Origin: Acidimicrobiales bacterium
GTDB taxonomy: Bacteria > Actinomycetota > Acidimicrobiia > Acidimicrobiales > JACDCH01
Assembly: GCA_051000215.1 (NCBI GenBank)
Contig: JBPCON010000038.1
Location: 3,797 to 67,796, forward strand
Direction of reading: 5' to 3'
DNA length: 64,000 nt
Of this stretch, positions 24,327-64,000 are shown in pieces (position 1 is the first letter of the stretch; each line of letters opens with the position of its first letter). The translations under genes were made by a program, and so were the position numbers. The notes under the pieces were generated by a model. The model was not told the origin of the DNA. It saw only the letters and a program-made list of their open reading frames with translations, and searched no databases.

Positions 24327-25889
24327 ATGTCGGCTTCTTCACGGTCGGTTGCCCAGCGGTCCCGCGCGCTTGCTCTCGGGGTCGCGCTCGTCTTGCTCGC
24401 CGCGGCGTGCGACAAGGGCACAGGATCCCAGGCCGAGAGCACCACCACTGTCGTCACCACCTCGCCAACGACCATCGCCCCGACCACATCCACGACGGTG
24501 GCGGCGACGACGACCACGGTCTCCGAGACGACGACCACGACCAGCCCGTCGCCGCCGACCACCATCCCAGGCGGCGGGTCGCTGACGCTCACCGATACGG
24601 GCTTCACCCGCGTGCGCGTCAGCATCACGAACCAGGCGCAGTGGGCCACCATCACGCTGCACGGCACCTCCCCCGTCGCCTCGAAGATCATCTCGACCAC
24701 CGGCAACAGCCAGGTCACCGCGCTCGGCGGGCAGGACATCGCCGTCCACGGTGACGGCACGGCGGTCGTCGACCTCGTGCTGTCGATCGCTCCAGGTGCC
24801 GCCACGTTCCTGTCGATGTGCAAGAACTACCTCGGCCGGGCGACGCTCGACGTGCACCGCTTGACCGACGGCGACGTGCCGATCGCGTCGTTCAGCAACA
24901 CCGGCATCGACCCGACGTCGTCGCCTTCCAGATGTGAGAACTACGCCGAATCTCCGCTCGATCGCGCCGCGCTCATCGGCCCGGTGCGGTGGCCCGCCCG
25001 CCACGACCCACGCCCGCTCGTGCTGGCCAACTACTACCCGTGGTACGACCCGGCGACGCTCAACCGCACGTTTGGTCCCGACGCGCCGATCGGGCCGGCT
25101 GACTCGTCCGACCCGACGGTCGTCGCGCAGGCAGTCGATCTGGCCCGTGGCTCCGGCATCGACGGTTTCGTCGTCGAGTACGAGGCGACGCCAGCCAACG
25201 ATCCGAGGATCGACTACGTCTACGCAGCCGCGGAGCAGCGCACGGGCTTTCAGGTCGCGCTCACGCTCGACATCGACCTGATCTACCGGCGCAACGGTCA
25301 GTTGAGCAACAACATGCTCGACGCAGCGCTCGGATCTGCCGCTTCGCACGCTTCGAGCCCGAGTCAACTGCGCGTGGGTGACCGGCCTGTCGTGTTCGTC
25401 TACGGGGTGAGCCGCGTCACGAACCAGCAATGGTCCGGCGCGCTCGACCGCCTTCGCGGACGAACGGGCGTGCAACCGTTCGTCATCTCGAACGACCCTG
25501 GCCTGAACAGCGACGCGCACTACCTCTACAACACGTACAACCTGACGACGCTCGATCAGCTCACACAATGGGCGTCGGGGACCTTGTTGCAGCAGCAGCT
25601 GCAGCCCGGCCTTGCCGGGCAGACCGGGTCGCTCTGGGTGGCGCCGGCATCCCCCGGCTACGACGATCGCCTCGTGAACCGACCGGACCACAGCTTCGTG
25701 TCGCGCGACGGGGGGCGCCGCTACGACCAGTCGTGGCAGACGGCCTTGACGACGTTGCCGGACTGGGTGCTCATCGCGACCTGGAACGAGTACTCCGAGC
25801 AGACGCACATCGCCCCGGGCTCGACGACGGGCTACCAGGCCCTCGACCAGACCACAGCCTGGGCACAGACGTTCCACGCCACGGGGTGA
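24327..25889 (+). CDS. Lipoprotein with Thr/Pro-rich linker and GH99/GH71-like glycoside hydrolase domain
   Basis: Lipobox LLAAAC; linker TTTVVTTSPTT...; VLANYYPWY, GIDGF, SPGYDDR, RDGGRRY, LIATWNEYSEQTHIAP. Confidence 0.75.
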   Translation: MSASSRSVAQRSRALALGVALVLLAAACDKGTGSQAESTTTVVTTSPTTIAPTTSTTVAATTTTVSETTTTTSPSPPTTIPGGGSLTLTDTGFTRVRVSITNQAQWATITLHGTSPVASKIISTTGNSQVTALGGQDIAVHGDGTAVVDLVLSIAPGAATFLSMCKNYLGRATLDVHRLTDGDVPIASFSNTGIDPTSSPSRCENYAESPLDRAALIGPVRWPARHDPRPLVLANYYPWYDPATLNRTFGPDAPIGPADSSDPTVVAQAVDLARGSGIDGFVVEYEATPANDPRIDYVYAAAEQRTGFQVALTLDIDLIYRRNGQLSNNMLDAALGSAASHASSPSQLRVGDRPVVFVYGVSRVTNQQWSGALDRLRGRTGVQPFVISNDPGLNSDAHYLYNTYNLTTLDQLTQWASGTLLQQQLQPGLAGQTGSLWVAPASPGYDDRLVNRPDHSFVSRDGGRRYDQSWQTALTTLPDWVLIATWNEYSEQTHIAPGSTTGYQALDQTTAWAQTFHATG

Positions 25890-25934
25890 GCGCCGCGGAA
25901 CGTCGACAGCCAGACGTTGCGCGAACCTAGGCCA

Positions 25935-26687
25935 GTGATCGAGACGGTGATCTTGTGCGGCGGGATGGGCACCCGCGCGTATCCCCACACGATCGAGCTC
26001 CCGAAGCCACTTCTCGAGGTCGACGACCGCCCGGTGCTCCAGCACGTCATGGACATCTACGAGCGGCAAGGTTTCACCCGCTTCGTCCTCGCGGCTGGAT
26101 ACCGCGGCGAGCTGATCGTGGACTTCGTTTCGCGGCTCTCGAGCGATCTCGACATCCGGGTGCGCGACACGGGCGAGTTGGCCAACACCGGTGAGCGCAT
26201 CCTGCGCTGCAGCGACGATGTCGGTGAAGTCTTCTTCGCGACATATGCCGATGGGCTCGGCGACGTCGACCTCCAGGCGTTGCTGTCCTTCCACCGCGCT
26301 CATCGCGGCGCAGCCACCCTGACCACCGTCCCACTTCCCTCGCAGTACGGGACGCTCGAGCTCGACGGCGAGGGACGGGTGCTGCGATTTCGGGAAAAGC
26401 CGAAGTTGCCCGAGCATCGCATCAACGCAGGTTTCTTCGTGTTCGACAGACGAGTCTTCGAGTTGTGGGACGGGGAGGATCTGGAGCGCGAAGTCCTCCC
26501 GCGCCTTGCCGCCGCCGGCGAGCTCTACGCCTTTCACCACGACGGGTTCTGGAAGTCGATGGACACCTACAAGGAATCCCTTGACCTCACCGAACTGTGC
26601 CGGCCCGGGCCGCCGCCGTGGTTGCGGCGACCGCTCCCGGCGGACACGCCTCTCGCGGCTCCATCCGCAGCGGTCGAAAGCACGTGA
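25935..26687 (+). CDS. rfbF: Glucose-1-phosphate cytidylyltransferase-like nucleotidyltransferase
   Basis: LCGGMGTR, PKPLLEV, DTGELANTGER, TYADGLGDVD, FREKP, INAGFFV, HDGFWKSMDT. Confidence 0.8.
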   Translation: MIETVILCGGMGTRAYPHTIELPKPLLEVDDRPVLQHVMDIYERQGFTRFVLAAGYRGELIVDFVSRLSSDLDIRVRDTGELANTGERILRCSDDVGEVFFATYADGLGDVDLQALLSFHRAHRGAATLTTVPLPSQYGTLELDGEGRVLRFREKPKLPEHRINAGFFVFDRRVFELWDGEDLEREVLPRLAAAGELYAFHHDGFWKSMDTYKESLDLTELCRPGPPPWLRRPLPADTPLAAPSAAVEST

Positions 26688-28429
26688 CGGTCACCGCGAG
26701 CCCGCCCCGCGACACACCGCGAGGCCGCCCTCAGATGCGTTCCACGATGCGGATCATGGGGGTTTGCCTCGCTCTGGCGGCCTCGAGCCTGACCCTGCCC
26801 GGAGCCGTCCGCACGCAGGGCCGCTCTCGCCCGAACGTTGTCGCGACCCCGTCTTCACCCACGTCGATTGCCGTGACCTGGTCCTCGACTGCAAAGCCCG
26901 ATCTCTGGTGGGTCCTCGTCAATGGTCCAGACGATCGCTCTGTCGGTCAGCGCAGCACATGCGGCACCTGCCGGAAGGTCGTTGTCGATCACCTGGCGCC
27001 AGGGAGCCATTACTTCGTACGCGTCTTCGGCGTCGGCGCGTCGGGCTTCGACCCGATGTCCGATCCGGTGTCCGCGATGACCGCCCCTGCGGCCGGCTGC
27101 GAGTCGGTCGGCTCCAACACGTGCGTTGTCGTCGACGCGGCGAATCCCGGCGCGCCCACGACAGGTGTCGGGCTCGGGAGCCTCCACGGCATCACCGCCT
27201 CGACCGACCCCGCTCGCGTCACCCCGCTCGAGCCGACGGCCTGGCGCCTCAGTGCCCTGGACTTTCCTCGCTTCGCGCTCGCTCATCGGTACGGCGGGGC
27301 CATCACGGTGATCCTGAGCGACCCGTGGGTGACCGCGACCCACAATCTGGCTCCCTGGTCGAACTGGGACTTCTATCGCTACTGGGTCGACCTCGTCGTG
27401 CAGGCGCACATCGGCCAAGGTGCCCTGCCCGATTACTGGGAGATCCAAAACGAGCCGAGCGCTGAGACCTACACCGGTGCCGAACCGGCGACAGCCGATC
27501 TGGTGTTCCAACAGCACCAGGTCGCGGCGGAGGTCATTCGTCAACGGCTACCGGCTGCGAAGATCCTCGGCCCAGCCCCTGGCTACCCGAACTTCGGCTT
27601 CGGGCTCGCCGACGTCTCAGGCTTCGTGCAGCGCGCCGACTCGACAGGGCTCCACCCGGCCGGCGTCTCCTGGCACGAGATCGGCGCAGGCTGCCTCGGC
27701 TACTGCGACGGCAACCCCCGGGCTGTGCTCCAGCACGCGGACGACGTGCGCGCTGTCCTGGCCGCTCACCCGGCCCTCGCCGGCGTGAAGCTCGTTGTGG
27801 ACGAGTGGGGTGCCCCCTGGTCGGCCCGCCAGCCTGGTTCGGTCGCTGGCTATCTGTCCTCGCTCGCCTCTGCCGGTATCGACATCGCCAACCCTGCGTG
27901 CTTTGCGTTGGACGGGACAGACGGGGTCTCGCGCTTGTCCTGCTTCGCTGTTCCGGGGACGCTCGACGGTCTTGTGCTCGACGACGGCACCACGCCGACC
28001 GATGCGTGGTTCGTGCATCGGGCCTATGCCCAGATGACAGGCCCCAGCGCTCGGCTGCTCAGCTCGACCATCGCGGATCCTGAGGCCTCGTCGATCGCGA
28101 CGATCGACGCGACAGACACGATCCGGGTGCTCCTCGGGCGCCACACCGGCTGCCAGGTCGGAGTTGACGACAACTGTCCAGTCGGCTTCAGCTACGCCGC
28201 ACCGACATCGGTGCGCGCGCTGATCACCGTCGGATCGACCAGCACCAGGTACCTCACAAGCGTGGAACGCATCGCCTCGACGGCCGGCGCGTCGAGCGGA
28301 CCGACGCAGCTCGGTCAGCCCAGGCTTCTGACAGCGCCGTCGAAGCGCGGTGCCGCGACGATCGATGTTGGCGCCTTGACGCTGAACGACGGCGAGGCAG
28401 TTGTTATCACCATGGTGCCGGTGCGTTAG
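26684..28429 (+). CDS. Putatively secreted protein with a fibronectin III-like domain and a GH-A clan (GH39-like) hydrolase domain
   Basis: Hydrophobic N-terminal segment, SPTSIAVTW...LAPGSHYFVRV (FnIII-like), WEIQNEP acid/base, VSWHE, VVDEWG nucleophile. Confidence 0.65.
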   Translation: MTVTASPPRDTPRGRPQMRSTMRIMGVCLALAASSLTLPGAVRTQGRSRPNVVATPSSPTSIAVTWSSTAKPDLWWVLVNGPDDRSVGQRSTCGTCRKVVVDHLAPGSHYFVRVFGVGASGFDPMSDPVSAMTAPAAGCESVGSNTCVVVDAANPGAPTTGVGLGSLHGITASTDPARVTPLEPTAWRLSALDFPRFALAHRYGGAITVILSDPWVTATHNLAPWSNWDFYRYWVDLVVQAHIGQGALPDYWEIQNEPSAETYTGAEPATADLVFQQHQVAAEVIRQRLPAAKILGPAPGYPNFGFGLADVSGFVQRADSTGLHPAGVSWHEIGAGCLGYCDGNPRAVLQHADDVRAVLAAHPALAGVKLVVDEWGAPWSARQPGSVAGYLSSLASAGIDIANPACFALDGTDGVSRLSCFAVPGTLDGLVLDDGTTPTDAWFVHRAYAQMTGPSARLLSSTIADPEASSIATIDATDTIRVLLGRHTGCQVGVDDNCPVGFSYAAPTSVRALITVGSTSTRYLTSVERIASTAGASSGPTQLGQPRLLTAPSKRGAATIDVGALTLNDGEAVVITMVPVR

Positions 28430-29127
28430 CGCCGTCGAAGGGTCCGGCGGATCTTCGCGATGACGCGCTGCGAGTATCTCTTGAGTCGGCGGCGGGTCGT
28501 CGTGTAGAAGGCCTGCTCCGTCCAATCCTCCGAGAGGGTGCCGGCTCGCCGCTTCTCCCACGCCCCCCACTTCGCTGTCAGGGTGATGGACTGCCAACGA
28601 GGATCGCGCTTGACGAACGCGTTCAGCGCGCCGACCGCTGGTAGGTCCAGATCGTCGACGAGCAGGGCTCCGCCCTGGCGAAGCATCGACCCGGCGTAGA
28701 ACCAGTCCAGCATCGGGAGGGGGAAGCCGTGGCTGCCGTCGACCAACACCAGATCGAGCTCGGTACCGGCGGCCTCCATGACGGGCAGCGTCTGGTGCGA
28801 CGAGCCAACGCGAAACGACAACGCCGCGGTTGCGATGCCGCGCCGCTCGCAGTCGGCCAGCACCCGGTCTGCCTCGTCCTGTCCGGCGGTGCAGCAGACG
28901 TGCTGGCATCCGAGAGCTGCGAACAACACGGTCGAGAGCCCACATCCGGTCTCGAGGGTGCGGGTGCCGGGGCCGCATCGGTCCGCGATGAAGCGGTAGC
29001 ACGCCTCATCGGTGGACCACACACCCATCGACGTCCCGCTCGCCGTGACGCCCATCGGGTGGATCACGGGCGGGTCTGCCAGCAGATCGTCGACGAGTGA
29101 TTGGCGATCAGCGTTTCCAGCGGGCAC
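28426..29127 (-). CDS. Class I SAM-dependent methyltransferase (Methyltransf_24-like)
   Basis: TLETGCGLST, LVLVDGSHGF, LRQGGALLVDD. Confidence 0.8.
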   Translation of the reverse strand: MPAGNADRQSLVDDLLADPPVIHPMGVTASGTSMGVWSTDEACYRFIADRCGPGTRTLETGCGLSTVLFAALGCQHVCCTAGQDEADRVLADCERRGIATAALSFRVGSSHQTLPVMEAAGTELDLVLVDGSHGFPLPMLDWFYAGSMLRQGGALLVDDLDLPAVGALNAFVKRDPRWQSITLTAKWGAWEKRRAGTLSEDWTEQAFYTTTRRRLKRYSQRVIAKIRRTLRRR

Positions 29128-29156
29128 GACGCCCGACTTTACAGACCTGGATCTTC

Positions 29157-30083
29157 TCAGCGATCTGCGACGACGTCGCGGACCCAGGCAACCGTGTCAC
29201 GCAGGCCTTCCCCGAGCGGCGTGGCGGCCTCGGCGCCCAACGCTCTCGCTCGTGAGACATCGGCCGTCCAGTGCAAGGGGTCCCCGGCGCGCGCCTCGCC
29301 CGTGAACGCGAAGGAGGTTGGGAGCCCTGTGGCCGCGATGATCGCCTCGGCCAACTCGGCCAAGCTCACGGCTTCGCCCGAGCCGAGGTTGTAGCTCTCA
29401 GCGCGCCCCGGCGCGTTGCGAGCCAAGGTGACGATGGAGCGCACCGCGTCACGGACGTATAGGAGGTCGCGCGTGACGTCGGATCGGCCGTGGATCACAC
29501 ACGGGTTCTCGCCTTCGAGCACGCGCCGGATGAGATCGAAGACGAAGAGCTTGCGCTGTCCTGGCCCATACAGCGAGAACGGGCGGACCGCGAAGCAGCT
29601 GATGTCGTAGATGCGGTGGTACAGCCGCAGGTACTCCTCTGCGGCGAGCTTCGCTACTCCATAGGGAGACATGGGGGCCAGGGGGTGGTCTTCCGTCATC
29701 GGCACGAACTCGGCGCCGCCGTAGACGGCGGCGGACGACAGGAGCACAACTGCGGGAGGGTGCACGCAACAACGTGCCGCCTCGAGCAGAGCGATGGTCG
29801 ACGCGACGCTGCCCAGGAGGTCGCCGACCGGGTCGAGGAGAGATGGCGGGACGAAGGCGGGCGACGCCAGGTGGAAGACGACCTCGGGTAGCTCGTCATG
29901 GAACACGCCCGCCAGGTCGACTCCCTCGAGCGGGCCGACGAGCGAGGACCACTCGGCGCCCGGCGGTGCCTCCGAACGATCGATGACCGTGACAGCCGTG
30001 CCGCCCTCGAGGAGCTCGCGCACGAGCCACTGGCCGAGAAATCCGTGCCCGCCGAGCACGACAGCCTTCGCCAGCGCTCGCAT
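29157..30083 (-). CDS. NAD-dependent sugar epimerase/dehydratase
   Basis: GGHGFLG, VFHLAS, LSSAAVYG, YGVAK (YxxxK), RPFSLYGPGQ, RDLLYVRD. Confidence 0.9.
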   Translation of the reverse strand: MRALAKAVVLGGHGFLGQWLVRELLEGGTAVTVIDRSEAPPGAEWSSLVGPLEGVDLAGVFHDELPEVVFHLASPAFVPPSLLDPVGDLLGSVASTIALLEAARCCVHPPAVVLLSSAAVYGGAEFVPMTEDHPLAPMSPYGVAKLAAEEYLRLYHRIYDISCFAVRPFSLYGPGQRKLFVFDLIRRVLEGENPCVIHGRSDVTRDLLYVRDAVRSIVTLARNAPGRAESYNLGSGEAVSLAELAEAIIAATGLPTSFAFTGEARAGDPLHWTADVSRARALGAEAATPLGEGLRDTVAWVRDVVADR

Positions 30084-30124
30084 GGGCGGACAGTAGCCCG
30101 AGGCCAGCGACCCCCCGGGATAGC

Positions 30125-31204
30125 GTGCCGCGGGTGTCTCCGCTCAGCGTGGCCTACGACGTCACACCAGTTTTGTCAGGCAGAACGGGCATCGCTCGCT
30201 ACGTCACAGAACTGAGCCGGGGCCTCGAGAGCAACGGTGTCGACGTGCGTCGCTACGGCGTCGGCCGGGCGCAGTTCCCGGCACCGGCGCGCACCAAGCA
30301 CCTCCGCGTGCCCCTGCGCGCTGTGCAGCGAAGCTGGTCGGCGGGCGGACCCCCGCTCATCGAGCGCCTCAGCGGGGCAGTCGACATCGTCCACTCGACG
30401 AGTCTGGTCGTCCCCCGATCTCGGCGCCCGATCGTGGTGACCATCTACGACACCGCACCGCTCGACCATCCTGATCTGCATTCAGCGCGGACCGTCCGCG
30501 GCTTCGAGACGTTGATGCACGATCTGCCAAGGGCGGCCGCCGTGCTCACCGTGAGCAAGTCTGTTGCCGCCGACCTCGCCCGCCACGGCGTGGATCCCGA
30601 TCGCGTCACGACCGTGTACCTCGGCCGCACAGCCTTCCCCGTCCCAGAGCCCGTCGACATGCCGCGCCCCTTCCTCCTCACGGTCGGCGAGCAGGTGCCT
30701 CGCAAGGATCAGACAACGCTCGTGCGAGCCTTCGCCCGAGCAGACCTCGGGGATGTGCACCTCGCGCTTGTCGGCCCGCCTGGCGAGGCGACGCCGGGGC
30801 TGCGGGCTCTCGTCGCCGAGCTACGCATCGAGGGGCGCGTCCACTTCCTCGACGCAGTCGACGACGCGGGGCTGGCCTGGCTCTACGCCTCAGCGCTCGC
30901 TTACTGCTTCCCAAGCGTCGGCGAGGGGTTCGTGACGCCGGTGGTCGAGGCCATGGCCGCCGGGTTGCCGGTCGTCGCGAGCGAGATCGCACCAACGATC
31001 GAGATCGCCGGTGGCGTCGCGCTCCTGCATCCGGTCGGCGACGTCGCGCTCTGCTGCGCCGCCCTCGAGCGGGTCGTGCACGAGCCGGGACTCGCCGCGC
31101 ACCTTGGTGATCTCGGTCGGGATCGAGCGGCGAGCTTCACCTGGGAGAGAACCGCAGCCCAGACCGTCGCTGTCTACGAGCAGACCCTGACCGCTCGGTC
31201 CTGA
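30125..31204 (+). CDS. Glycosyltransferase family 4 (start may be 30134)
   Basis: RTGIARY, VGEQVPRKD, FPSVGEGFVTPVVEAMAAGLPVV. Confidence 0.9.
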   Translation: MPRVSPLSVAYDVTPVLSGRTGIARYVTELSRGLESNGVDVRRYGVGRAQFPAPARTKHLRVPLRAVQRSWSAGGPPLIERLSGAVDIVHSTSLVVPRSRRPIVVTIYDTAPLDHPDLHSARTVRGFETLMHDLPRAAAVLTVSKSVAADLARHGVDPDRVTTVYLGRTAFPVPEPVDMPRPFLLTVGEQVPRKDQTTLVRAFARADLGDVHLALVGPPGEATPGLRALVAELRIEGRVHFLDAVDDAGLAWLYASALAYCFPSVGEGFVTPVVEAMAAGLPVVASEIAPTIEIAGGVALLHPVGDVALCCAALERVVHEPGLAAHLGDLGRDRAASFTWERTAAQTVAVYEQTLTARS

Positions 31205-31220
31205 AGAGCGACCCGGGGCG

Positions 31221-32708: not shown

Positions 32709-32864
32709 CGTCGCCTCCAAGCGTTCGCAGGGCACGAAGTCGTCGATCAGGCAGCCCCGGTGCTTCTGCGCTGATCAACGCCGGGACCGGACGCTACCGC
32801 GCTCCCCACTCAGCATCCACTGCGGCGGCCTCTCCGGGCGATGTGGAGGCGGTGTCGTCTGTTT

Positions 32865-54328: not shown

Positions 54329-54392
54329 GAGCAGGCGAGCGTAGGCGCGGGAGTTCGGCGCCGACTGGCGGGGCCGGTAACGTCGAGCCTCC

Positions 54393-56781: not shown

Positions 56782-57455
56782 TGCGGCCCGCCGTCGTCGA
56801 GTTCGCGCGCGATGTCGCAGCGTCGTTCCCGATCGACTCGCCGCTCATCGAGGTCGGCGCGCGCGCTGCGGAGGGCCAAGAAGGCATCGCCGACATGCGT
56901 GCCATCTTCGACGCTGCGATCCACGTCGGCTGCGACATCCAGGAGGGTCTTGGCGTCGACCGGGTCGAGGACGTGCACAACTTGAGCTTCGACGACAACA
57001 GCGTCGGCACGCTCATCTCGCTCGAGACCCTCGAGCACGTTGCCGATCCGTTGCGCGCTGTGCGCGAGATGCACAGGGTGCTCAAGCCCGGTGGTCTGCT
57101 GGCGATCAGCTCGTTGATGTTCTTCCCGATCCATGCCCACCCGTGGGACTACTGGCGCTTCACCCCTGAGGGCTTCGAGCTCCTGCTCGAGCCCTTCGAG
57201 TCGAAGCTCGTCGTCGCGCAGGGCTGGGAGTTCATGCCCGAAGGCGTCTTCGGCGTCGCGGTGAAGGGACCTGCCGAGCTCTCCCCTGGGCAGTTGCCGC
57301 GCACCATGAACATCGCTCGCCACTGGGACGGCGGCAAGCGCGTCGAGCTCGGGCCCCTGCGGCTCTCGTTGCGCGAGCTGTGGAAGCTGACGCTGAAGCA
57401 TTCCGTCGCTGCCCTCAGCGACCGGGCACGAGGCCTCGGCGCAACTCGCCGCTAG
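56781..57455 (+). CDS. SAM-dependent methyltransferase (type 11-like)
   Basis: IEVGAR, VGCD, ETLEHV, RVLKPGG, HAHPWDYWRFT. Confidence 0.8.
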   Translation: MRPAVVEFARDVAASFPIDSPLIEVGARAAEGQEGIADMRAIFDAAIHVGCDIQEGLGVDRVEDVHNLSFDDNSVGTLISLETLEHVADPLRAVREMHRVLKPGGLLAISSLMFFPIHAHPWDYWRFTPEGFELLLEPFESKLVVAQGWEFMPEGVFGVAVKGPAELSPGQLPRTMNIARHWDGGKRVELGPLRLSLRELWKLTLKHSVAALSDRARGLGATRR

Positions 57456-57474
57456 CGCGCGACGCTCGCGCTAG
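57452..57474. terminator. Hairpin between convergent genes, possible bidirectional terminator
   Basis: Perfect 8-bp stem CTAGCGCG/CGCGCTAG with a 7-nt loop, incorporating both stop codons; no U-tract. Confidence 0.4.
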
Positions 57475-58109
57475 ACCTTCAGCCACTCCTCGGCGCCCGG
57501 GTCCCACCGGCGAACCGGGCGCGCCGGGTTGCCGACCACGAGGGTGCGTTCCTCGACGTCGGAGGTGACGACCGCCCCGGCACCGATGTAGGCGTGCTCC
57601 CCGACCGTCACCCCCATGAGCACGGCCGAGCCGATGCCGAGGAATGATCCGCGCCCGATCACCACCTTCTCCGGTGGCGCCATGGGCTGGTCGATGATGG
57701 GCGTCAACGGGTCCTCGTAGCGGTGGTAGGTGTCGCCGATGAAGATGCGAGCGGCGGTGACGACATCGGCACCGATCTCGATCTCTCCGACGCACGCCAC
57801 GTGGCTCTGCGCGCCGATGCTGGTGCGGTCGCCGATGGTCAGTCTCGGCGTGATTCCCGCAATTGCGGCCACGACCGAGAGGAAGGAGCGCTCCAGGATC
57901 GTGACGTCGTCGCCGAGGAACACCGACGCCGGCGTGCTCACCCTGGCCGGCGGGACGATCCAGGTGTTGCGGCCGTACGCGCCGAACGCGCTCGGCGGCG
58001 GCGGGGTGAGCACGTGCGCGGTGTCCGCCGCCATGCGCCGCGCTCGACGCTCTTCGCCCACGCGTCTGCGGATCTCTTCGATGTTCGGAACGCGACGAGG
58101 GATCCTCAT
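57471..58109 (-). CDS. Hexapeptide-repeat (LbH) acyltransferase
   Basis: IGDRTSIG, IEIGADV, IGRGSFLGIGSAVLMGVTVGEHAYIGAGAVVT, VVGNPAR. Confidence 0.88.
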   Translation of the reverse strand: MRIPRRVPNIEEIRRRVGEERRARRMAADTAHVLTPPPPSAFGAYGRNTWIVPPARVSTPASVFLGDDVTILERSFLSVVAAIAGITPRLTIGDRTSIGAQSHVACVGEIEIGADVVTAARIFIGDTYHRYEDPLTPIIDQPMAPPEKVVIGRGSFLGIGSAVLMGVTVGEHAYIGAGAVVTSDVEERTLVVGNPARPVRRWDPGAEEWLKV

Positions 58110-58759
58110 GGGAACCGGGTCCCCTCCCACTGCATCGTGTTCGTGTCGAGCCGCCGCACGACCGTGGCGGGGTTGCCGTACACGACGGAATGAGCAGCGA
58201 CGTCGTCGAGCACGACTGCGCCCTCGCCAACGAAAGCGCCGGCCCCCACCCGCACGCCGGGACCAATCACGCACCCCCATCCGAGGTAGGCGCCGGCCTC
58301 GATCACGATCGCTCCGCCAGGAGGCGGCGGGGGTGTCGCGTCCCGTCCGAGCGGGCCCCACGTGTCGGTGATGGCCACGTAGTCCGAGCTCGACACGCCG
58401 GTCTCGATGGTGACGCCAGCGCTGCAAACGATCTCGGCGCCCGGCGCGAGGTGCACGTGATCACCGACGACGAGCCGCGCGCCGGACAGGGTGTCGACCG
58501 CCAGGCCGCTGTCTTCGAGGATGACCACTCCGTCACCGATCTCGATTGCCGCGGTCCCACTGATGCGCGTCGGGGCGACGAGGAACGAACACGTCCCCCA
58601 TCGGGCGAAGCTCGACGCGGGCGGCGTTCTGCGCTCCCGGGGCACGCGCATGGCTGTGCGGCTCGGAGCGCGGAGCTCGGCGGCGCGCGACCGAGCCCGC
58701 TGCGCCCAACCGCGGCCGCGCCGGGCCGCTGCTCGGAGCACCCTCGAGGCCGTTGGCAT
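58106..58759 (-). CDS. Hexapeptide-repeat (LbH) acyltransferase, tandem paralog
   Basis: IEIGDGV, VGDHVH, IEAGAYLG...IGPGVRVGAGAFVGEGAVV, VYGNPA. Confidence 0.85.
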   Translation of the reverse strand: MPTASRVLRAAARRGRGWAQRARSRAAELRAPSRTAMRVPRERRTPPASSFARWGTCSFLVAPTRISGTAAIEIGDGVVILEDSGLAVDTLSGARLVVGDHVHLAPGAEIVCSAGVTIETGVSSSDYVAITDTWGPLGRDATPPPPPGGAIVIEAGAYLGWGCVIGPGVRVGAGAFVGEGAVVLDDVAAHSVVYGNPATVVRRLDTNTMQWEGTRFP

Positions 58760-58778
58760 TCGTCGAGATGGCACTTTC

Positions 58779-59621
58779 TCAGCTGCTGCTCGACGCCAGC
58801 AGCGCCCCGAGTCGATAGACGTGAAGATCTTGTGCCCCGAGCCATGCGCGAGGCGCGTAGGCGAGCCGTCGCGCGTCTGTCGCGACGCTGCGCTTGATGA
58901 CGTCGTCCAGATATTCGGCCGTGTGGAGCGTGATGCCATATGCCGCGCGGCGATAGTGCGGATACGGGACGTGGGCGTGCCCCGAGCGGGTGAGCTCTGC
59001 GGCGACGCTGTCTATATGAGCGTGACCGTTCGGCAAGAAGTGGGGGAGCCAGTCGACGGAGCTCGGCCCAATGGTGGAGAACACCAACAGTGCTCCGGGA
59101 CGCACATTTCGGTGGATCAGGTTCCAGAGCTCGTGTTCGGACGTGTTGTCGAGATGCGTGAGGAGCGAACCCATCCAGACGATGTCGTAGGGCCCGGGCG
59201 TCAGTCGCACTCTGGCCGGTTGCCGTGACGCCAGAACGGTCTCGACGCCGAACTCGTTTCGACAAAACCGCAGCGCGCTCCGATCGATGTCCGCCCCGGT
59301 CCAACGGACCTCTGGGAACGCGGTGACGAGGTGGCGCAGCACCCGGCCGTGGCCGCACCCGAGATCCAAACCGGTGCCCCCGTCGTCGCGAACCGACTGC
59401 GCGAGGTGTTGGCCGATCAACGCAGCGATCTGCTCGCCGGCCGCGACGTAGTCGGCCACTTGCTCTGGGACTCGCTTCGGCATCATCAGATCGTTGGCGT
59501 GGATCCGCCCGGGTACGCCGGCGAGCTGCTTCGGCGGCATCAGCTCCCGCACTGCCGTACGCGCCGTGCGCGCGGCCCAGTACAGAGGGGGAAGCGACTT
59601 CAGCCGGTCCTTCATCAGCAT
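58779..59621 (-). CDS. Class I SAM-dependent methyltransferase directly downstream of wzt
   Basis: LDLGCGHGRVLR, TGADID, SLLTHL, LVFST; homologous to 19785..20672. Confidence 0.85.
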   Translation of the reverse strand: MLMKDRLKSLPPLYWAARTARTAVRELMPPKQLAGVPGRIHANDLMMPKRVPEQVADYVAAGEQIAALIGQHLAQSVRDDGGTGLDLGCGHGRVLRHLVTAFPEVRWTGADIDRSALRFCRNEFGVETVLASRQPARVRLTPGPYDIVWMGSLLTHLDNTSEHELWNLIHRNVRPGALLVFSTIGPSSVDWLPHFLPNGHAHIDSVAAELTRSGHAHVPYPHYRRAAYGITLHTAEYLDDVIKRSVATDARRLAYAPRAWLGAQDLHVYRLGALLASSSS

Positions 59622-59649
59622 CGGAGAACGCCCAGACCGACCGGCGTGT

Positions 59650-60867
59650 TCACAGCGCGACCCCGGGATAGTCGCTGAGGATCTCCTCGCCCAGGCGGAT
59701 GCTTGCTTGCAGGTCCGCGACTCCCGATGTGCCCAGCGGGGGCGTGACATAGACGAGCATGCCCATGGTGTCGCGGTGATGGACCGATCGTCCGTCGAGG
59801 GAGGTCACCGTGAGCAGGAAACGGAAGGACCCGCCGGCCAACTGCGGTGTGAAGTCGATCTCGACGTCGGCGTCGTCTCCCGCCTCGTAGCGTTGATGGC
59901 TTCGGTTGAGGACCGAACGCATCTCGTAGACGACGGTGCGGTCCTCAGCGAGCACAGTGAAATGGATCTGGGGGCTGTCGACTGTGATGTCGAAGTGCAG
60001 GCGTACACGCAGCTTGCTCGGCACGCCGCGAGGCAGGCGGCTCGTCGGCCCGTTGGGACCCAGCAGCTCGCGGAAGCTCACCTCGACGCCACCGATGACG
60101 CCTTCCTCCTGCTGGCTGTCGCCTCCGTCGCCCCCCTCGGAGAGCAGCTCGTGGTGACGGGCGATGACCTCCTCGACGTCGCCGTCGAGCTCGAGGCGCC
60201 CGCGCCGCAGCAGGATGGCGCGAGGGCACAGGAGGCGTATGGCATGCATCGAGTGGCTGACGATGACGATCGTCGCACCACCTTCTTTGAGCTGGCGCAT
60301 GAAGTCGAAGCACTTGAGCTGAAACGCGAGGTCGCCGACGGCGAGCACTTCGTCAACGAGAAGCACCTGCGGGTCGACGTGCACCGCCACCGAGAAGCCG
60401 AGGCGCATGAACATGCCCGATGAGTAGAACTTCACCGGCGTGTCGATGAACGCTTCGAGCTCTGCGAAGGCGACGATCGCGTCGAAGCGTTCGGCGACCT
60501 CGTTCTTGGTGAGGCCGAGGAGCATGCCGTTGACGAAGACGTTCTCGCGGCCGGACATCTCTTGATGGAAGCCGACGCCAAGGCTGATCAGTGGTGCGAC
60601 GCGCCCACGGATCGTGACCTGCCCCGTCGAGGGCTGCGACACGCCGGCAAGCAAGCGAAGCAATGTCGTCTTGCCGGCACCGTTGTGGCCGACGATGCCG
60701 ACGGTCTCGCCTCGCCCAACGCTCAGATTGATGTCGGTGAGCGCCCAGTGCTCGACGCGCTTCGGCCGCCAGAACGGGAGCAGCGATTTCAGGAGCATGG
60801 CCTGCTCCTGGAGCTGCCAGTAGCGCTTGCCGACCCCGTTGAGATCGATGGCCGTGCTCGTCGTCAC
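59650..60867 (-). CDS. wzt: Polysaccharide ABC transporter ATPase with a C-terminal Wzt_C domain
   Basis: GHNGAGKTT, GFHQEMSGREN, YSSGMFMRLGF, LVDEVLAVGD; about 150-aa C-terminal beta-rich extension. Confidence 0.92.
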   Translation of the reverse strand: MTTSTAIDLNGVGKRYWQLQEQAMLLKSLLPFWRPKRVEHWALTDINLSVGRGETVGIVGHNGAGKTTLLRLLAGVSQPSTGQVTIRGRVAPLISLGVGFHQEMSGRENVFVNGMLLGLTKNEVAERFDAIVAFAELEAFIDTPVKFYSSGMFMRLGFSVAVHVDPQVLLVDEVLAVGDLAFQLKCFDFMRQLKEGGATIVIVSHSMHAIRLLCPRAILLRRGRLELDGDVEEVIARHHELLSEGGDGGDSQQEEGVIGGVEVSFRELLGPNGPTSRLPRGVPSKLRVRLHFDITVDSPQIHFTVLAEDRTVVYEMRSVLNRSHQRYEAGDDADVEIDFTPQLAGGSFRFLLTVTSLDGRSVHHRDTMGMLVYVTPPLGTSGVADLQASIRLGEEILSDYPGVAL

Positions 60868-61706
60868 AGGAGATCGACGAAGAGCCGGTCGTGGCGCCGT
60901 TGCGCTTCGAACCCGATCAGGGTGAGCATCACTGTCATCGCCACGGAGATCGTCACGGGGCGCAGCAGGGCCTCGCTGCCCCCGACGGTCGCTCGATGGA
61001 TGAGGGCGACAATGCCGGTGAGAGGGTTCAGGTCGACCCAATCCGCGAAGCGTCCGAGCAGGTCGCGTGTGTAGAGGACAGGGGTGAGGTAGATCCAAAC
61101 GAGCATCGCAGCTTGCACGAGGAACCTCGTGTCGCGGTAGTAGACCTGGAGCGCCGAGACGACGAGCGTGAGCGCCATCGAGAACAAGACGAGCAGCACC
61201 ATCGCCGGACCGAGGAGCAGCAGCCTGGTGCTGAGGTCGACGCCGAGCACCGGAAGGACAAAGAGGAGGACGACCATCGAGACCCCGAGGCTCACGAGGT
61301 TGGCCACGGCCGGAACGAGAACGAGGAGCACCCGGGGGAACCAGACCTTGTCGGTGAGGCTCGACCCGTCGACGATGGCTGTCACGCCCGCCGTCAACGT
61401 CGTGCCGAAGTACGAGAACGCGAGCACGCCGCCGAAGACGTAGGCGCCGAAGTTGATGCCGGTGCTCGATCTCGGGATGATCTGGGAGAACACCGCAGCC
61501 ATGACGACACCCTGCAGGACGGGTACGGCGACTGCCCAGAGCACCCCGAACGCTGCACGCTTGTAGCGCGTCTGGAAGTCCTTGCGCGCGAGCATGAGGA
61601 ACACTGCGCGGTGCGCCCAGACGTCGGCCATCCACGCGCGCGGCGGCCCCGGTCTGGGCTCGAGCACGAGCACGCGGTCAAGCGGTGCAGCGGTGGGTTC
61701 AGGCAA
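60864..61706 (-). CDS. wzm: Polysaccharide ABC transporter permease
   Basis: KDFQTRYK...GVLWAVAVP, KVWFPR, YYRD, WIYLTPVLY, LNPLT. Confidence 0.92.
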   Translation of the reverse strand: MPEPTAAPLDRVLVLEPRPGPPRAWMADVWAHRAVFLMLARKDFQTRYKRAAFGVLWAVAVPVLQGVVMAAVFSQIIPRSSTGINFGAYVFGGVLAFSYFGTTLTAGVTAIVDGSSLTDKVWFPRVLLVLVPAVANLVSLGVSMVVLLFVLPVLGVDLSTRLLLLGPAMVLLVLFSMALTLVVSALQVYYRDTRFLVQAAMLVWIYLTPVLYTRDLLGRFADWVDLNPLTGIVALIHRATVGGSEALLRPVTISVAMTVMLTLIGFEAQRRHDRLFVDLL

Positions 61707-61711
61707 GGCGA

Positions 61712-62176
61712 TCAGCCATGGCGGAGCGCCCAATCGTAGGAGATCGTGTCGGTGAAGGGATCTATCCGCTCGATCTCGTCGGGGCGGTGGGCGACGCTGG
61801 AGCAGTTCGCCACCAGTGCAGGTGACACCCCTTCGCCCTTGAAGCCGTTCCAGACGCGCGGCGGGATGGTGACCAGCGCGTAGTTGAGCTCTCCTGTGTG
61901 GATCTCGACGAGGTTGCCTTGCGTCTTCGACCCGTCGCGGCCGTCGTAGCAAACGAGCTTGACCATGCCGATCGGCACCGCGTAGTTGAGGGTCATCTCC
62001 TTGTGGAGGTGCCAGGCCTTGATGGCACCCGGGTACACCATCGAGAAATAGATCTCGCCAAAGTGCTCGAAGCGCTCGCCGTCCTCGCGCAGCATGTGAA
62101 ACACAGCGCCTCGCTCGTCGGGTATTCGCCGTAGCGGGGTCACGTAGAGCCCGTCGATAGCGCTTGTCTCACTCAT
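61712..62176 (-). CDS. rfbC: NDP-4-keto-6-deoxyhexose 3,5-epimerase (RmlC/RfbC-like cupin)
   Basis: DERG, IKAWHLH, GMVKLVCYDGR, IPPRVWNGF. Confidence 0.78.
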   Translation of the reverse strand: MSETSAIDGLYVTPLRRIPDERGAVFHMLREDGERFEHFGEIYFSMVYPGAIKAWHLHKEMTLNYAVPIGMVKLVCYDGRDGSKTQGNLVEIHTGELNYALVTIPPRVWNGFKGEGVSPALVANCSSVAHRPDEIERIDPFTDTISYDWALRHG

Positions 62177-63113
62177 CCGCCAATGCTCCCTTGTTGTTCA
62201 AGCAGAAGGAGATGAGCTCGTCGACGGCGTCGATGAGCCCGACGCTGGCCTCCCAGCCGGCAGCCTCGAGTCGACCGACCGCCACGGTGTAGGGGCCGGG
62301 TGGGTCGGCCTGGGGCCGAGCACTCCGCAACCTTGGCCGAGTGCCTGTTCGCACAGCAAAGCCGTCAGCTATCAGCTCGGCGAGGGCTCGCACCGTCAGG
62401 GCCGACCCAGACGCGAGGTTGTAGGTGCCTGAGGCGATGGTTGTGCCGGTGCAGGCCCTGACCGCCGCACACACGTCACCGAGAGCGATGAAGTCGCGCC
62501 ACTGTTGACCGCTCGAGCGCAGGACCATGTCCCCCGTTCGCACTGCCTGCCTGGCGAGGTCGGAGGCAACGAGCGACCACCGGTCGACCTCGAGGGCCGC
62601 CGGCGCTCCGACGGCATTGGTGAGACGCAGGATCACGACCTCGAGGCCCGCCTCGGCGGCCTGGCCGACGAGATGCTCCGATGCGAGTCGGGCTATCGCG
62701 TACGTCGAGCGTGGCGCGGGAACAGTCGCTTCGTCGATGATGGCACCAGACACCAGCTTGGCGCCGTAGACGTGCACGCTCGAGACGTAGACCACGCGGC
62801 GCACCCCGGCCGAGGACGCCGCGCGTATGACGCGTTGGGTGGCGAGCGATGTCTCCGCGAGGGCGCGCTCAGGGTCGAGCGCCGCGAACGTCTCGTTCGG
62901 ACCCGCGAGGTGCACGACGGCGTCGACACCAGCAAGAGCGTCAGCGAGCCGAGCCTCCTCGGTGAGCAGGTCGAGCTCGACCTGCTCGAGCGCCGGTGGG
63001 AGAAATGGCGCGGCTTTGCGCACGAGCGCTCTGGTGGACTCGGGCGCGAGTGTGCTCACGAGACGGCTGCCCAAGTAGCCGCCGGCGCCCGTGACAGCAA
63101 CCACGCGTGTCAC
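62169..63113 (-). CDS. NAD-dependent epimerase/dehydratase (possible NDP-sugar 4-reductase)
   Basis: TGAGGYLG, VVHLAG, VSSVHVYG, YAIAR, RDFI. Confidence 0.8.
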   Translation of the reverse strand: MTRVVAVTGAGGYLGSRLVSTLAPESTRALVRKAAPFLPPALEQVELDLLTEEARLADALAGVDAVVHLAGPNETFAALDPERALAETSLATQRVIRAASSAGVRRVVYVSSVHVYGAKLVSGAIIDEATVPAPRSTYAIARLASEHLVGQAAEAGLEVVILRLTNAVGAPAALEVDRWSLVASDLARQAVRTGDMVLRSSGQQWRDFIALGDVCAAVRACTGTTIASGTYNLASGSALTVRALAELIADGFAVRTGTRPRLRSARPQADPPGPYTVAVGRLEAAGWEASVGLIDAVDELISFCLNNKGALADE

Positions 63114-64000
63114 GCTGCGCCGTTTGTCAGGTGCTCCCGGTACCAAGCCACGGTCTCGGTCAATGCCTCTTCCATCGTGTACCGCGGCGTCCAGCCGAGC
63201 ATCTTGCGGGCCTTCGCGGCCGACAGGAACTGCTCGTCGATCTCATGGGTCGCGGTGGCCCTGACGTCGGGCGCCAGGTCGGTTCCGATGGCATGTTGGA
63301 GCATGGCGACCAGCTCGAGCACGTTGAGTGGGTGCTCGGTGGAGAAGTTGAACGCCTCACCGACCACCTCTGGCCGCTCCGCCATCTGCTCGACGAGCTG
63401 CAGATAGGCGAGGGCGCCGTCGACGACGTAGAGGTAATCACGGACCATCGTGCCGTCGGAGCGGATGATCGGGGGTTCTCCGCGCAGCAACGAACGGATC
63501 GTGCCGGGCACGAGGCGGTCCCAGTTGCTGTCGCCGGGGCCGAAGAAGTTGCCGCAGCGGGTGACGCTCACAGGAAGGTCGTAGGTGTGCCGGAAGCTCT
63601 GCGTGATCAGGTCAGCACACGCCTTTGACACGTCGTAGGGGTTACGGGCGAGGAGCGGCATGTCCTCGTCGTAGGGGAGCTCGGGTTGTGCGCCGTACGC
63701 CTTGTCGCTGCTCGCAGTCACGAGCTGCTCGAGCCGCGGCGACCGCTTTGCTGCCTCGAGGACGGCCCACGTGCCGGCGATGTTGGCCTCGAAGGTGGCC
63801 ACGGGGTTGCGGTTGGCGACGCCGACCTGGCTCTGGGCGGCGAGATGGAACAGGGTTCGCGACTCGTAGTCGCCGAGCAGGCGCTCGACGGCGGCCTGGT
63901 CCTCCACCGCGCCGCGCACGAGCGCGACGCGCCCGCTCCAGTGTTCGCTGATCGGTGACACCGGCACGTCGTCCCGGGCGAGCACGACGACCTCGGCGCC
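63110..64000 (-). CDS. CDP-glucose 4,6-dehydratase-like SDR (5' partial at the window edge)
   Basis: FHLAAQSQV, SSDKAYG, YDVSKAC, RCGNFFGPGD, RDYLYV. Confidence 0.75.
   Translation of the reverse strand, partial: GAEVVVLARDDVPVSPISEHWSGRVALVRGAVEDQAAVERLLGDYESRTLFHLAAQSQVGVANRNPVATFEANIAGTWAVLEAAKRSPRLEQLVTASSDKAYGAQPELPYDEDMPLLARNPYDVSKACADLITQSFRHTYDLPVSVTRCGNFFGPGDSNWDRLVPGTIRSLLRGEPPIIRSDGTMVRDYLYVVDGALAYLQLVEQMAERPEVVGEAFNFSTEHPLNVLELVAMLQHAIGTDLAPDVRATATHEIDEQFLSAAKARKMLGWTPRYTMEEALTETVAWYREHLTNGAA

Follow-up and report, generated by a model that had tools for sequence, protein, structure and literature searches.

The window analysed here is a stretch of 64,000 nucleotides from an Acidimicrobiales bacterium (contig JBPCON010000038.1 of assembly GCA_051000215.1; C27:3797-67796 of the genome that we call G000). 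Its right-hand part holds a large surface-glycan locus, hereafter the island, in which a Wzm/Wzt exporter stands together with a Wzy_C-family membrane protein, a Wzz/tyrosine-kinase pair and nine methyltransferase genes. The genome is a metagenome-assembled genome (MAG) of 2.81 Mb in 63 contigs, 97% complete, and because it is a MAG, statements of absence carry that caveat. Named homologs, in Acidimicrobiaceae and Actinomycetota MAGs, place it in the Actinomycetota and probably in the Acidimicrobiia. Coordinates follow the window numbering, and positions above 64000 lie past its end. Because the G+C content of the window is high (68%), genes were called with a third-position and codon log-likelihood model, so that gene starts are model-based, and they were typed with Pfam and NCBIfam profiles.

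The island extends from about 24327 to 67776 (43.4 kb, 42-43 genes), and all genes from 24327 on belong to glycan metabolism. It is inserted between purL and purF and splits that pair. The left boundary, outside the island, is purL (FGAM synthase II; 22111-24324, plus strand; Pfam AIRS/AIRS_C/FGAR-AT_linker), and left of 24327 stand purL, purQ and then housekeeping genes (the dnaK operon, clpB, purA and purD). Past the window end follow, in order, the end of a 4,6-dehydratase gene, an acidic coiled-coil protein, a DUF4012 protein and a 227-aa secreted protein of the sortase-substrate type, after which the right flank consists of purF, purM and then a GtrA-family gene, 2.6 kb beyond the island. 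As a preliminary description of the DNA had counted, the island holds six family 2 glycosyltransferases (GT2), nine methyltransferase genes with ten domains, a priming transferase, a GT-C enzyme, a Wzz and bacterial tyrosine kinase (BY-kinase) pair, a Wzy_C protein, Wzm and Wzt, and two left-handed beta-helix (LbH) acyltransferases, all recovered with Pfam or NCBIfam. The gene order from 24327 is a GH71/GH99-like lipoprotein, a nucleotidylyltransferase, an fn3 protein, a Methyltransf_24 protein, a short-chain dehydrogenase/reductase (SDR), a family 4 glycosyltransferase (GT4), the primer, a methyltransferase, a 325-aa protein, four GT4, a GT2, the BY-kinase and Wzz. It continues with Wzy_C, two GT2, a GT4, a GT2, a two-domain methyltransferase, a PMT_2 GT-C, a Ppm-like GT2, a GT4, a degenerate methyltransferase, a GT2, four consecutive methyltransferases, the two LbH proteins, a further methyltransferase, Wzt, Wzm, an RmlC-like cupin, an SDR and the 4,6-dehydratase.

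Wzm and Wzt are encoded by overlapping genes, as in pathways that depend on an ATP-binding cassette (ABC) transporter. Wzm (60864-61673, minus) is an ABC-2 permease (ABC2_membrane, 50 bits), and Wzt (59650-60867, minus) joins an ABC ATPase (ABC_tran, 73 bits) to a C-terminal carbohydrate-binding beta-sandwich (Wzt_C, 27 bits, cutoff 30.4). The nearest sequence to Wzt in the PDB is the Wzt of Aquifex (E 1.6e-66), and an AlphaFold2 (AF2) model of mean predicted local distance difference test (pLDDT) 77.7 matches the Wzt of Aquifex aeolicus along its full length, across both the nucleotide-binding domain (NBD) and the carbohydrate-binding domain (CBD; 372-381 aligned columns, E 6e-38). In this model the last 110 residues fold into a beta domain of eight strands (residues 261-374, pLDDT 75-88), and homologs bear precomputed PF14524; we class the protein as a CBD-type Wzt. 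The CBD of Aquifex Wzt binds 3-O-methyl-Man/Rha caps and so certifies the chain for export (PMC9445017). Directly downstream of wzt lies a methyltransferase (58779-59621, minus; Methyltransf_12/25), which by this position is a candidate cap-forming enzyme.

A Wzx flippase, which the Wzx/Wzy-dependent pathway includes, turned up neither among the island genes nor within 7.5 kb rightward of the window, so that the earlier observation that none is visible in the window also holds for the stretch just beyond its edge, where a look for one had been advised. Across the genome, PF01943 gave nothing over its cutoff and PF13440 a single match, C58:49897-51603, which is MurJ (319 bits on PF03023) and the only MOP-family protein encoded. 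A tyrosine phosphatase (CpsB/Wzb), likewise reported as missing from the window, was not found among the island genes or within those 7.5 kb, to which this search was confined. Genuine Wzx genes do occur elsewhere in the related genomes G007, G022, G005 and G011, while G006 has none and G002 one weak candidate; in G007, Wzx stands 42 kb beyond purF on the contig that carries the relative of the island. The genome further encodes, away from the island, a second Wzm/Wzt pair, two LCP genes and two PF00953 genes (MraY and a WecA/TagO-like one). Further glycan loci lie at C8:50-67 kb, C51:54.6-56.7 kb, C13:82.6-83.9 kb and C62:7-36 kb, none of them with a Wzx; they hold a 597-aa protein in which Wzz and BY-kinase are fused, accompanied by a DUF4012 protein of its own, a protein with ten transmembrane (TM) segments and no Pfam family, the second Wzm/Wzt pair, a 39% identical GT-C paralog and a GT4/epimerase cluster.

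The Wzy_C-family protein (41900-43387, plus; PF04932, 44.6 bits, cutoff 31.7) is a polytopic membrane protein of the WaaL fold, a ligase or O-oligosaccharyltransferase (OTase) or else a polymerase. Its AF2 model, built from a 28-sequence alignment (pLDDT 88.8, predicted TM-score 0.89), has as its top solved structure the WaaL O-antigen ligase 7tpg (E 5e-6, TM-score 0.44/0.51), followed by FtsW and RodA. The modelled fold is the WaaL/Wzy/SEDS superfold and is compatible with ligase and polymerase alike. Next to it on the minus strand are a CpsD-like P-loop tyrosine autokinase, the BY-kinase (40281-40994; TIGR01007, 127.3 bits, cutoff 108), whose Walker A motif GEGKTT and C-terminal YGYG tyrosine cluster are kept among orthologs, and a Wzz/CpsC-like chain-length regulator (40987-41697) that matches TIGR01006 (79.8 bits) and Pfam Wzz over its full length, both below cutoff. 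The two correspond to the PCP-2b-type polysaccharide co-polymerase (PCP) and its BY-kinase in Wzx/Wzy-dependent pathways. The Wzz frame has no ATG, GTG or TTG before the first TM helix, and an ATC at 41695-41697 (minus) sits where the G007 ortholog has ATG (I-E-L-R-N-Y-L here, M-E-L-R-R-Y-L there). This ATC is retained in two independent metagenome orthologs (L121 and L119), in L121 with an in-frame stop 5 codons upstream, and the Pfam Wzz alignment begins at residue 1 of the ATC-started protein. Taken together, the sequences look like a case of conserved AUC initiation.

The arrangement is not confined to this genome. About ten related loci share this locus type, several of them likewise beside purF. 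Linkage between Wzy_C and Wzt could be evaluated in eight loci, namely the window, four metagenome contigs and the genomes G006, G007 and G022; in 8/8 of these, which have enough contiguity, a CBD-type Wzt is encoded 11-20 kb away from the Wzy_C ortholog. The same distance separates the Wzy_C/Wzz/BY-kinase triad from Wzm/Wzt(CBD) in all eight, and the Wzz/BY-kinase pair adjoins Wzy_C in every relative. Among 40 GTDB relatives a Wzy_C ortholog is present in seven, and in the three contiguous enough (G006, G007 and G022) the Wzt ortholog covers the CBD and stands on the same contig. In the closest syntenic contig, L121 (JGI 3300064095, contig Ga0604654_0000503), the gene order matches from the fn3 protein to DUF4012 at 48-83% amino-acid identity. 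The architecture recurs in JGI 3300005529 Ga0070741_10000371 and JGI 3300050240 Ga0506524_0005815, and in ENA ERZ25039498 contig_47462, where it is beside purF/purM; in L004 (ENA ERZ1700618) the right half is beside purF. By label, loci of this type comprise L128, L122/L127, L119/L120, L004, G006, G022 and G002, the last with Wzy_C-Wzz-BY-kinase-GT4 and the priming transferase on a purF-side contig, and GtrA and Wzt on a purL-side contig. With synteny in about ten loci, the idea that two clusters came to lie side by side by accident is rejected, and the island stands as a single conserved surface-glycan locus.

Its position is shared as well. The purL-purF gap is 0.06-2.6 kb in 9/12 relatives, and purL and purF are on different contigs in G002 and G008. 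In G007, which belongs to the same family and another genus, the gap is 38.6 kb and a homologous island fills it. A tblastn search of this interval with all island proteins found GtrA, a small Bac_transf, four GT4, the BY-kinase, Wzz, Wzy_C, GT2 and GT4 genes, five methyltransferases (one TylF, 300 bits), Wzm, Wzt, a nucleotidyltransferase, two Acyl_transf_3 proteins, a sulfotransferase, the RmlC-like/SDR/dehydratase trio and DUF4012. The modification set varies among relatives, with 3-9 methyltransferases per locus, LbH proteins here against AT3 acyltransferases in some relatives, and the sulfotransferase in G007. Since the scaffold is kept while the modification genes vary, the purL-purF site is a hotspot with a conserved scaffold and variable decoration. 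It behaves like a serotype-type hotspot, a pattern typical of surface variation driven by phages or grazers. Insertion by a mobile element is unsupported, as no integrase, tRNA or repeats were noticed and the GC content is uniform except at 32-34 kb, though no dedicated test was made.

The methyltransferases make up the most conspicuous part of the modification set. Besides the wzt neighbour, they comprise a Methyltransf_24 protein of the TylF/CmcI-like class (28426-29127, minus; PF13578, 35.2 bits), one with weak Methyltransf_12/23/11 matches and a low GC3 of 0.71 (32865-33596, minus), and the two-domain protein (47568-49298, minus). On the plus strand are a truncated, degenerate copy (52744-53343), a Methyltransf_11/25 protein (54393-55130; 81.6 bits, motif I DLGCGLG), a TIGR04290-like protein typed by Pfam/NCBIfam (55127-55966; 78% ortholog in L121), its paralog (55966-56781; 36% identity over 277 aa) and a Methyltransf_11 protein (56781-57455; 49.7 bits, 81% ortholog in L123). 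The earlier statement that they fall into several unrelated subfamilies holds for most of them; 55127-55966 and 55966-56781 form the only clear paralog pair (36%), and 52744-53343, which shares 33% identity with the C-terminal part of 55127-55966, is a degenerate copy lacking the S-adenosylmethionine (SAM) motif I. A census was made with a hidden Markov model (HMM) built from the island methyltransferase cores and iterated on the called proteome. It placed 8 of the 41 class-I methyltransferases found among 2770 called genes within the 43 island genes (hypergeometric P ~1e-7), and the Methyltransf_24 gene is a ninth in addition to these eight. No other methyltransferase cluster exists in the genome, as nowhere else do three lie within 12 kb. 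The density noted at first sight is thus far above chance, while the extreme count is specific to this genome, since related loci hold 3-5 against nine here.

A densely methylated and acetylated glycan, as first proposed, is the natural reading of this enrichment, and sister islands hold families of sugar O-methyltransferases (TylF, 300 bits, in G007 and RMNT_CmcI in L004). The best NCBIfam names for the island proteins are generic class-I ones (UbiG/UbiE/BioC/CmoB-like). Three of the genes, 52744-53343, 55127-55966 and 56781-57455, have orthologs of 48-81% identity at the corresponding places of syntenic loci. Although truncated, 52744-53343 has a counterpart at its site in two such loci that have diverged from the island (48% in L121, 42% in L122), and it probably persists for a non-catalytic role. 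The longest open reading frames (ORFs) of methyltransferase 54393-55130 and the divergent GT2 53333-54481 overlap by 89 bp (54393-54481) at their 5' ends, and one of the two starts probably lies further downstream.

The two-domain methyltransferase (a Zn-ribbon and a methyltransferase domain, then a second methyltransferase domain; two Methyltransf_11/23/25 stretches, motif I at residues 113 and 403) is divergent from a pair of glycosyltransferase genes. One encodes a GT-C enzyme of the PMT_2 type (49359-50789, plus; PF13231, 34.9 bits, cutoff 26.1) with at least 7-9 TM segments, and the other a GT2 resembling polyprenyl-phosphate sugar synthases of the AglJ/PpgS/DPM kind (50923-51624, plus; Glycos_transf_2, 103 bits), whose top NCBIfam matches, AglJ, PpgS and dolichyl-P hexose transferase, each fall below their own cutoff. 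Orthologs of the methyltransferase at 56-76% were found in metagenomes only and none in the 40 GTDB relatives, where the best match is 39% and partial. Among 81 loci retrieved by alignment of its homologs, 23 from many phyla have a homolog of the GT2 50923-51624 within 1.5 kb; in the closest Actinomycetota loci the GT2 is near the methyltransferase in 6/6, with gaps of -47 to +60 bp, and eight loci also have a GT-C within 4 kb. The order GT-C, GT2, methyltransferase is repeated in L128 and L119, and the cassette loci are L006-L011, L013-L024, L119 and L128. The L119 assembly joins the GT2 to the first methyltransferase domain in a single 583-aa ORF, 53% and 59% identical to the window genes; as this assembly looks indel-prone, the fusion may be an artefact, but other GT2-methyltransferase fusions are P0035, P0082 and P0091. 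In G007, G002 and G008 a GtrA gene sits where the island meets purL, and the GtrA-family gene beyond purM here scores 41 bits on GtrA_DPMS_TM, above cutoff. The idea that the two-domain methyltransferase is a WbdD-like terminator was dropped, as the genes that consistently lie beside it are those of the Ppm-like GT2 and the GT-C and not wzt. With the nearby GtrA, the cassette looks, from its families and neighbourhood, like a three-component module for extracytoplasmic glycosylation with an added methylation step, and the methyl group is possibly placed on the polyprenyl-phosphate sugar. As it recurs in many phyla, the cassette offers a lead for a new step in three-component glycosylation.

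The primer is a WbaP/WcaJ-like polyprenyl-phosphate hexose-1-phosphate transferase (31221-32735, minus; Bac_transf, 221 bits, with CoA_binding_3; TIGR03025, 414 bits) and the only Bac_transf gene in the genome. Together with the adjoining low-GC3 methyltransferase (GC3 0.71 vs ~0.85; 31221-33596 for the two) it lies in the one G+C dip of the island (G+C 0.651), and this segment of 31.2-33.6 kb is missing at this position in L121; it may be a later replacement or acquisition. Seven GT4 are firm, at 30125-31204 (plus; Glyco_trans_1_4/Glycos_transf_1/Glyco_transf_4) and, by Pfam, at 34656-35768, 35765-36928 and 36925-38097 (all minus), 38228-39445 and 45287-46588 (both plus) and 51596-52708 (minus). 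The eighth of the original count, a 325-aa protein (33659-34636, minus), is weakly like the C-terminal half of GT-B enzymes (aligned by hhalign with the GT4 proteins of the island at E 0.0012 and 19% probability; E 0.04 on Pfam Glyco_trans_1_2); it has a 61% ortholog in L121, and a PDB sequence search gave nothing useful, low-threshold Pfam adding the weak GT-B hint. GT2 enzymes other than the Ppm-like one were assigned by Pfam at 39439-40320, 43384-44325, 44337-45290 and 46581-47537 (plus) and 53333-54481 (minus).

Nucleotide-sugar genes stand at both ends. The left set comprises a sugar-1-phosphate nucleotidylyltransferase like glucose-1-P cytidylyltransferase (25935-26687, plus; NTP_transferase, 76.6 bits; TIGR02623, 182.7 bits, cutoff 300) and an SDR NDP-sugar epimerase/dehydratase (29157-30083, minus; Epimerase, 150 bits), for which NCBIfam gave no equivalog. 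The right set, all on the minus strand, consists of an RmlC-like cupin, an NDP-4-keto-6-deoxyhexose epimerase (61712-62176; dTDP_sugar_isom, 27.1 bits), an SDR reductase/epimerase (62169-63146; Epimerase, 117 bits) and an NDP-hexose 4,6-dehydratase (63110-64000 and on to 64063 past the window; GDP_Man_Dehyd/Epimerase, 177 bits; TIGR02622, 188 bits, cutoff 278). The best NCBIfam matches are of the CDP type, as the preliminary description had it, but both score below their equivalog cutoffs, and we therefore call this an NDP-6-deoxyhexose pathway. The two LbH proteins are WbbJ/WcaF-like, an O-acetyltransferase (57471-58034, minus; Hexapep; NF007240, 75 bits, below cutoff) and an acetyltransferase (58106-58651, minus; Pfam/NCBIfam). 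Of the two exported hydrolases claimed earlier, the lipoprotein at the left end (24327-25889, plus) bears out, with an LAAC lipobox, a Thr/Ser/Pro-rich linker, in which a T-rich stretch is seen, and a GH71/GH99-like domain (Glyco_hydro_71, 62 bits; GH99, 34.8 bits). The second, a secreted fn3-domain protein (26747-28429, plus; signal peptide; fn3, 24 bits; 48% ortholog in L121), is possibly a clan GH-A hydrolase, which the WEIQNEP motif spotted by eye suggests; a PDB sequence search gave no relative beyond fn3.

The right-end block (64336-67776), with the acidic coiled-coil protein, the DUF4012 protein and the small secreted protein, is conserved (L004 14700-18673; L099/L100; L119 11627-14183). 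The small secreted protein (67093-67776) ends in GSLARTG, a TM segment and poly-Arg, that is, a sortase-type sorting signal; a Thr/Pro-rich, Cys-flanked motif 'CDPxYGC(T/N)PxT...TC.IS' is found in G000, G007 and L119, and the C-terminus 'GGGSL(A/S)(R/K)TG' with TM segment and poly-Arg in G000, G007 and L004, that of L119 being garbled. This sortase-anchored protein beside DUF4012 is a candidate glycan acceptor or organiser. A PDB sequence search with the DUF4012 protein gave nothing useful, and no S-layer gene was seen. In the left part of the window, away from the island, a dCTP deaminase gene (857-2455) is split by a LAGLIDADG homing-endonuclease intein (DCD with LAGLIDADG_3/Hom_end).

We propose, with about even confidence, that the island encodes an ABC-transporter-dependent assembly line in which a methyl-capped, heavily O-methylated and O-acetylated heteropolysaccharide is delivered to a WaaL-fold Wzy_C transferase. 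The WbaP-like transferase would prime polyprenyl phosphate with hexose-1-phosphate, and seven or eight GT4 and about five GT2 would extend the chain in the cytoplasm from substrates that include the NDP-6-deoxyhexose made by the locus. There, up to eight active SAM methyltransferases and the two LbH acetyltransferases would decorate the sugars, with at least one methyl group serving as the non-reducing-end cap. Wzm/Wzt would read this cap through the CBD and export the finished lipid-linked chain, which the WaaL-fold Wzy_C protein would transfer outside to an acceptor, acting as a ligase and not as a polymerase; this may be the wall, in which case one of the two off-locus LCP enzymes would take part, or a surface protein such as the sortase-anchored protein beside DUF4012. 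The split Wzz/BY-kinase pair may control the transfer step, and the module of GT-C, Ppm-like GT2 and GtrA may add a side sugar from a polyprenyl-phosphate donor, with the two-domain methyltransferase tied to this module. A bolder joint version, which we consider unlikely to hold in all its parts, is that the division into ABC and Wzy pathways fails in this clade: the cap-reading Wzm/Wzt would be the sole exporter, the WaaL-fold Wzy_C under Wzz/BY-kinase would move methyl-capped chains onto the sortase-anchored protein, and the cassette sugar would be methylated on its polyprenyl-phosphate carrier.

Several points weigh against the assembly line as proposed. The Wzt_C match is below its cutoff, and residues 378-405 of the Wzt model are of low confidence. 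Wzx genes exist elsewhere in the relatives G007 and G022, and in a 63-contig MAG strain-variable glycan genes, wzx included, are those most easily lost from bins. As the PDB matches of the Wzy_C model included no Wzy polymerase, the match to WaaL is compatible with a polymerase too, so that the ligation of ABC-exported chains first suggested agrees with the best fold match without being singled out by it. Moreover, the Wzz/BY-kinase pair is a hallmark partner of the Wzy polymerase, not of a ligase, and we know of no slg or O-antigen ABC system that needs such a pair. No island methyltransferase matched a characterised family of sugar O-methyltransferases, NCBIfam and PDB sequence searches giving generic class-I relatives.

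An alternative is a dual-chain assembly of the Lactococcus lactis or Enterococcus faecalis kind, with two glycans from one locus. The right half (Wzm/Wzt, 6-deoxyhexose genes and methyltransferases) would make a backbone exported by the ABC transporter, the left half (primer and GT4 block) a repeat-unit polymer that Wzy_C polymerises outside under Wzz/BY-kinase control; the GT-C or an LCP enzyme would link the two there, and the repeat unit would cross by a flippase that is off-locus, undetected or unconventional. Genes of the Wzy type do gather roughly in the left half and those of the ABC type in the right, the Wzy_C, Wzz and BY-kinase genes stay together as a conserved triad, in L004, to which the right half is most closely related, the ABC part is next to purF, and the second PF00953 gene, WecA/TagO-like, could prime a second chain; Wzx is present elsewhere in G007 and G022, once on the island contig itself, and there is documented precedent (PMC9574508). 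The two halves are however never apart in the 8/8 evaluable loci, just one Bac_transf primer is encoded genome-wide, and no Wzx was found in G000 or G006, nor inside any of the about ten islands examined, which leaves the dual-chain assembly rather unlikely in our view. If instead no Wzx is involved at all, Wzm/Wzt might export methyl-capped lipid-linked blocks that Wzy_C, under Wzz/BY-kinase, polymerises or ligates onto a growing backbone. The strict linkage of CBD-type Wzt with the triad and the missing Wzx speak for such a hybrid, the strongest form of the reading first proposed, as does a BY-kinase that appears functional from its above-cutoff TIGR01007 score and conserved tyrosine cluster. 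Yet the WaaL fold match fits simple ligation equally well, some island-bearing relatives have a Wzx elsewhere and the MAG is incomplete; we know of no precedent for a Wzy acting on ABC-exported chains and regard this as improbable. That lipids, peptides or small molecules, and not glycans, are the main substrates of the methyltransferases, or that the product is no wall or surface polysaccharide but a glycolipid resembling the mycobacterial glycopeptidolipids (GPL), would agree with their not reaching any curated sugar O-methyltransferase family. This is very improbable, however, given that they are interleaved with glycosyltransferase genes, that three are kept in syntenic loci, that TylF and RMNT_CmcI families occur in sister islands and that the island has no polyketide synthase (PKS), non-ribosomal peptide synthetase (NRPS), acyl-carrier or other lipid genes. 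Nothing therefore points to the glycolipid product that had been offered as an option, and no methyltransferase was assigned to families of the GPL type.

The locus matters for several reasons. To our knowledge nothing experimental is known of the cell envelope of these uncultured Actinomycetota. In no other glycan locus does this 2.8-Mb genome invest as much, and a fifth of its class-I methyltransferases are encoded here; the cells therefore probably wear a polymer coat that is unusually hydrophobic and rich in methyl and acetyl groups. The BY-kinase/Wzz/Wzy_C triad paired with a CBD-type Wzm/Wzt falls outside current pathway schemes, and since it is found in a Wzx-less genome, the locus is a concrete system for asking what a PCP does without a Wzx/Wzy cycle.

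Among described systems, the slg cluster of Geobacillus stearothermophilus NRS 2004/3a has WsaP, WsaC-F, Wzm/Wzt, WsaE with its 2-O-methyl cap, the Wzy_C OTase WsaB and rml genes (PMC2943079). Compared at the level of gene families, the island resembles it in its WbaP-like primer, Wzm/Wzt, 6-deoxyhexose genes, predicted methyl chain-end cap and Wzy_C protein predicted to act as a transferase after export, in a monoderm that needs no Wzx, and by family membership it combines, as slg does, primer, Wzm/Wzt and Wzy_C-domain protein in one cluster. The island differs in adding the split Wzz/BY-kinase, DUF4012, the GT-C/GT2/methyltransferase cassette and LbH acetyltransferases, in having nine methyltransferase genes against one domain in slg, in 6-deoxyhexose genes of the CDP/NDP type and not rmlABCD, and in a candidate acceptor that is a small sortase-anchored protein and not an S-layer. 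Because slg already has this architecture, as a monoderm precedent, the label of a hybrid Wzy/ABC locus under which the island was first described is only partly needed; what is unusual here is the obligatory companionship of PCP-2b/BY-kinase, DUF4012 with its neighbours, and the number of methyltransferases. Export of the O-antigens of Escherichia coli O8/O9a and Aquifex (PMC3482155, PMC9445017) is alike in a Wzt with NBD and CBD, a methyltransferase right downstream of wzt and the cap-recognition model, while here neither a WbdD-like kinase nor a coiled-coil ruler is present, an outer membrane, lipid A-core and Lpt are lacking, and the primer is WbaP-like and not WecA.

Composite loci with ABC and Wzy parts have been described in lactococci and enterococci (PMC9574508), and the L. 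lactis cell wall polysaccharide (CWPS) and the E. faecalis polysaccharide antigen (EPA) (PMC9574508, PMC7188991) combine an ABC-exported 6-deoxyhexose chain, a Wzy-like polymerase with a Wzz-like partner, GT-C enzymes, three-component side-chain glycosylation and LCP anchoring encoded elsewhere, for all of which the island and its genome have candidate counterparts. Those loci however have a Wzx and GacI/J-type C55-P-GlcNAc priming and lack the BY-kinase, the CBD on the ATPase and the series of methyltransferases. Exopolysaccharide (EPS) clusters of Bifidobacterium and other Gram-positive bacteria reportedly export by Wzx/Wzy, unlike the island with its Wzm/Wzt and no Wzx. Those of the B. longum 105-A type (PMC5412050) have in common with it a priming Bac_transf, DUF4012, Wzz/BY-kinase and many glycosyltransferases. 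The methylated glycans of mycobacteria differ in lacking Wzm/Wzt(CBD), Wzy_C and PCP, and no homology with the island was found. Those glycans are either polysaccharides of the cytoplasm or glycolipids of the lipopeptide kind, with 2-4 methyltransferases. GPL, the methylmannose polysaccharide MMP and the methylglucose lipopolysaccharide MGLP (PMC9883506) are like the island in being actinobacterial and in using several SAM methyltransferases on hexoses or 6-deoxyhexoses. The cassette has its counterparts in the GtrA/GtrB/GT-C, Ppm1/Pmt and ArnC/ArnT systems (PMC9574508, PMC11127046), which are alike in a polyprenyl-P-sugar-synthase-like GT2 beside a PMT_2 GT-C, with GtrA nearby; the difference is the Zn-ribbon methyltransferase as a conserved third neighbour, occasionally fused to the GT2, such methylation being undescribed there, and AglP, a methyltransferase that belongs to the Agl pathway of Haloferax volcanii, offers the closest parallel (PMC3871713). 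The small sortase substrate recalls GspA of Actinomyces oris, which is LCP-glycosylated and sortase-anchored (PMC6381275). Every component family, and composite loci as such, are known already. New is the scaffold of PCP-2b/BY-kinase, Wzy_C, CBD-type Wzm/Wzt and DUF4012, conserved in an uncultured actinobacterial clade, together with its purL-purF position, the record methyltransferase load and the methyltransferase-bearing three-component cassette.

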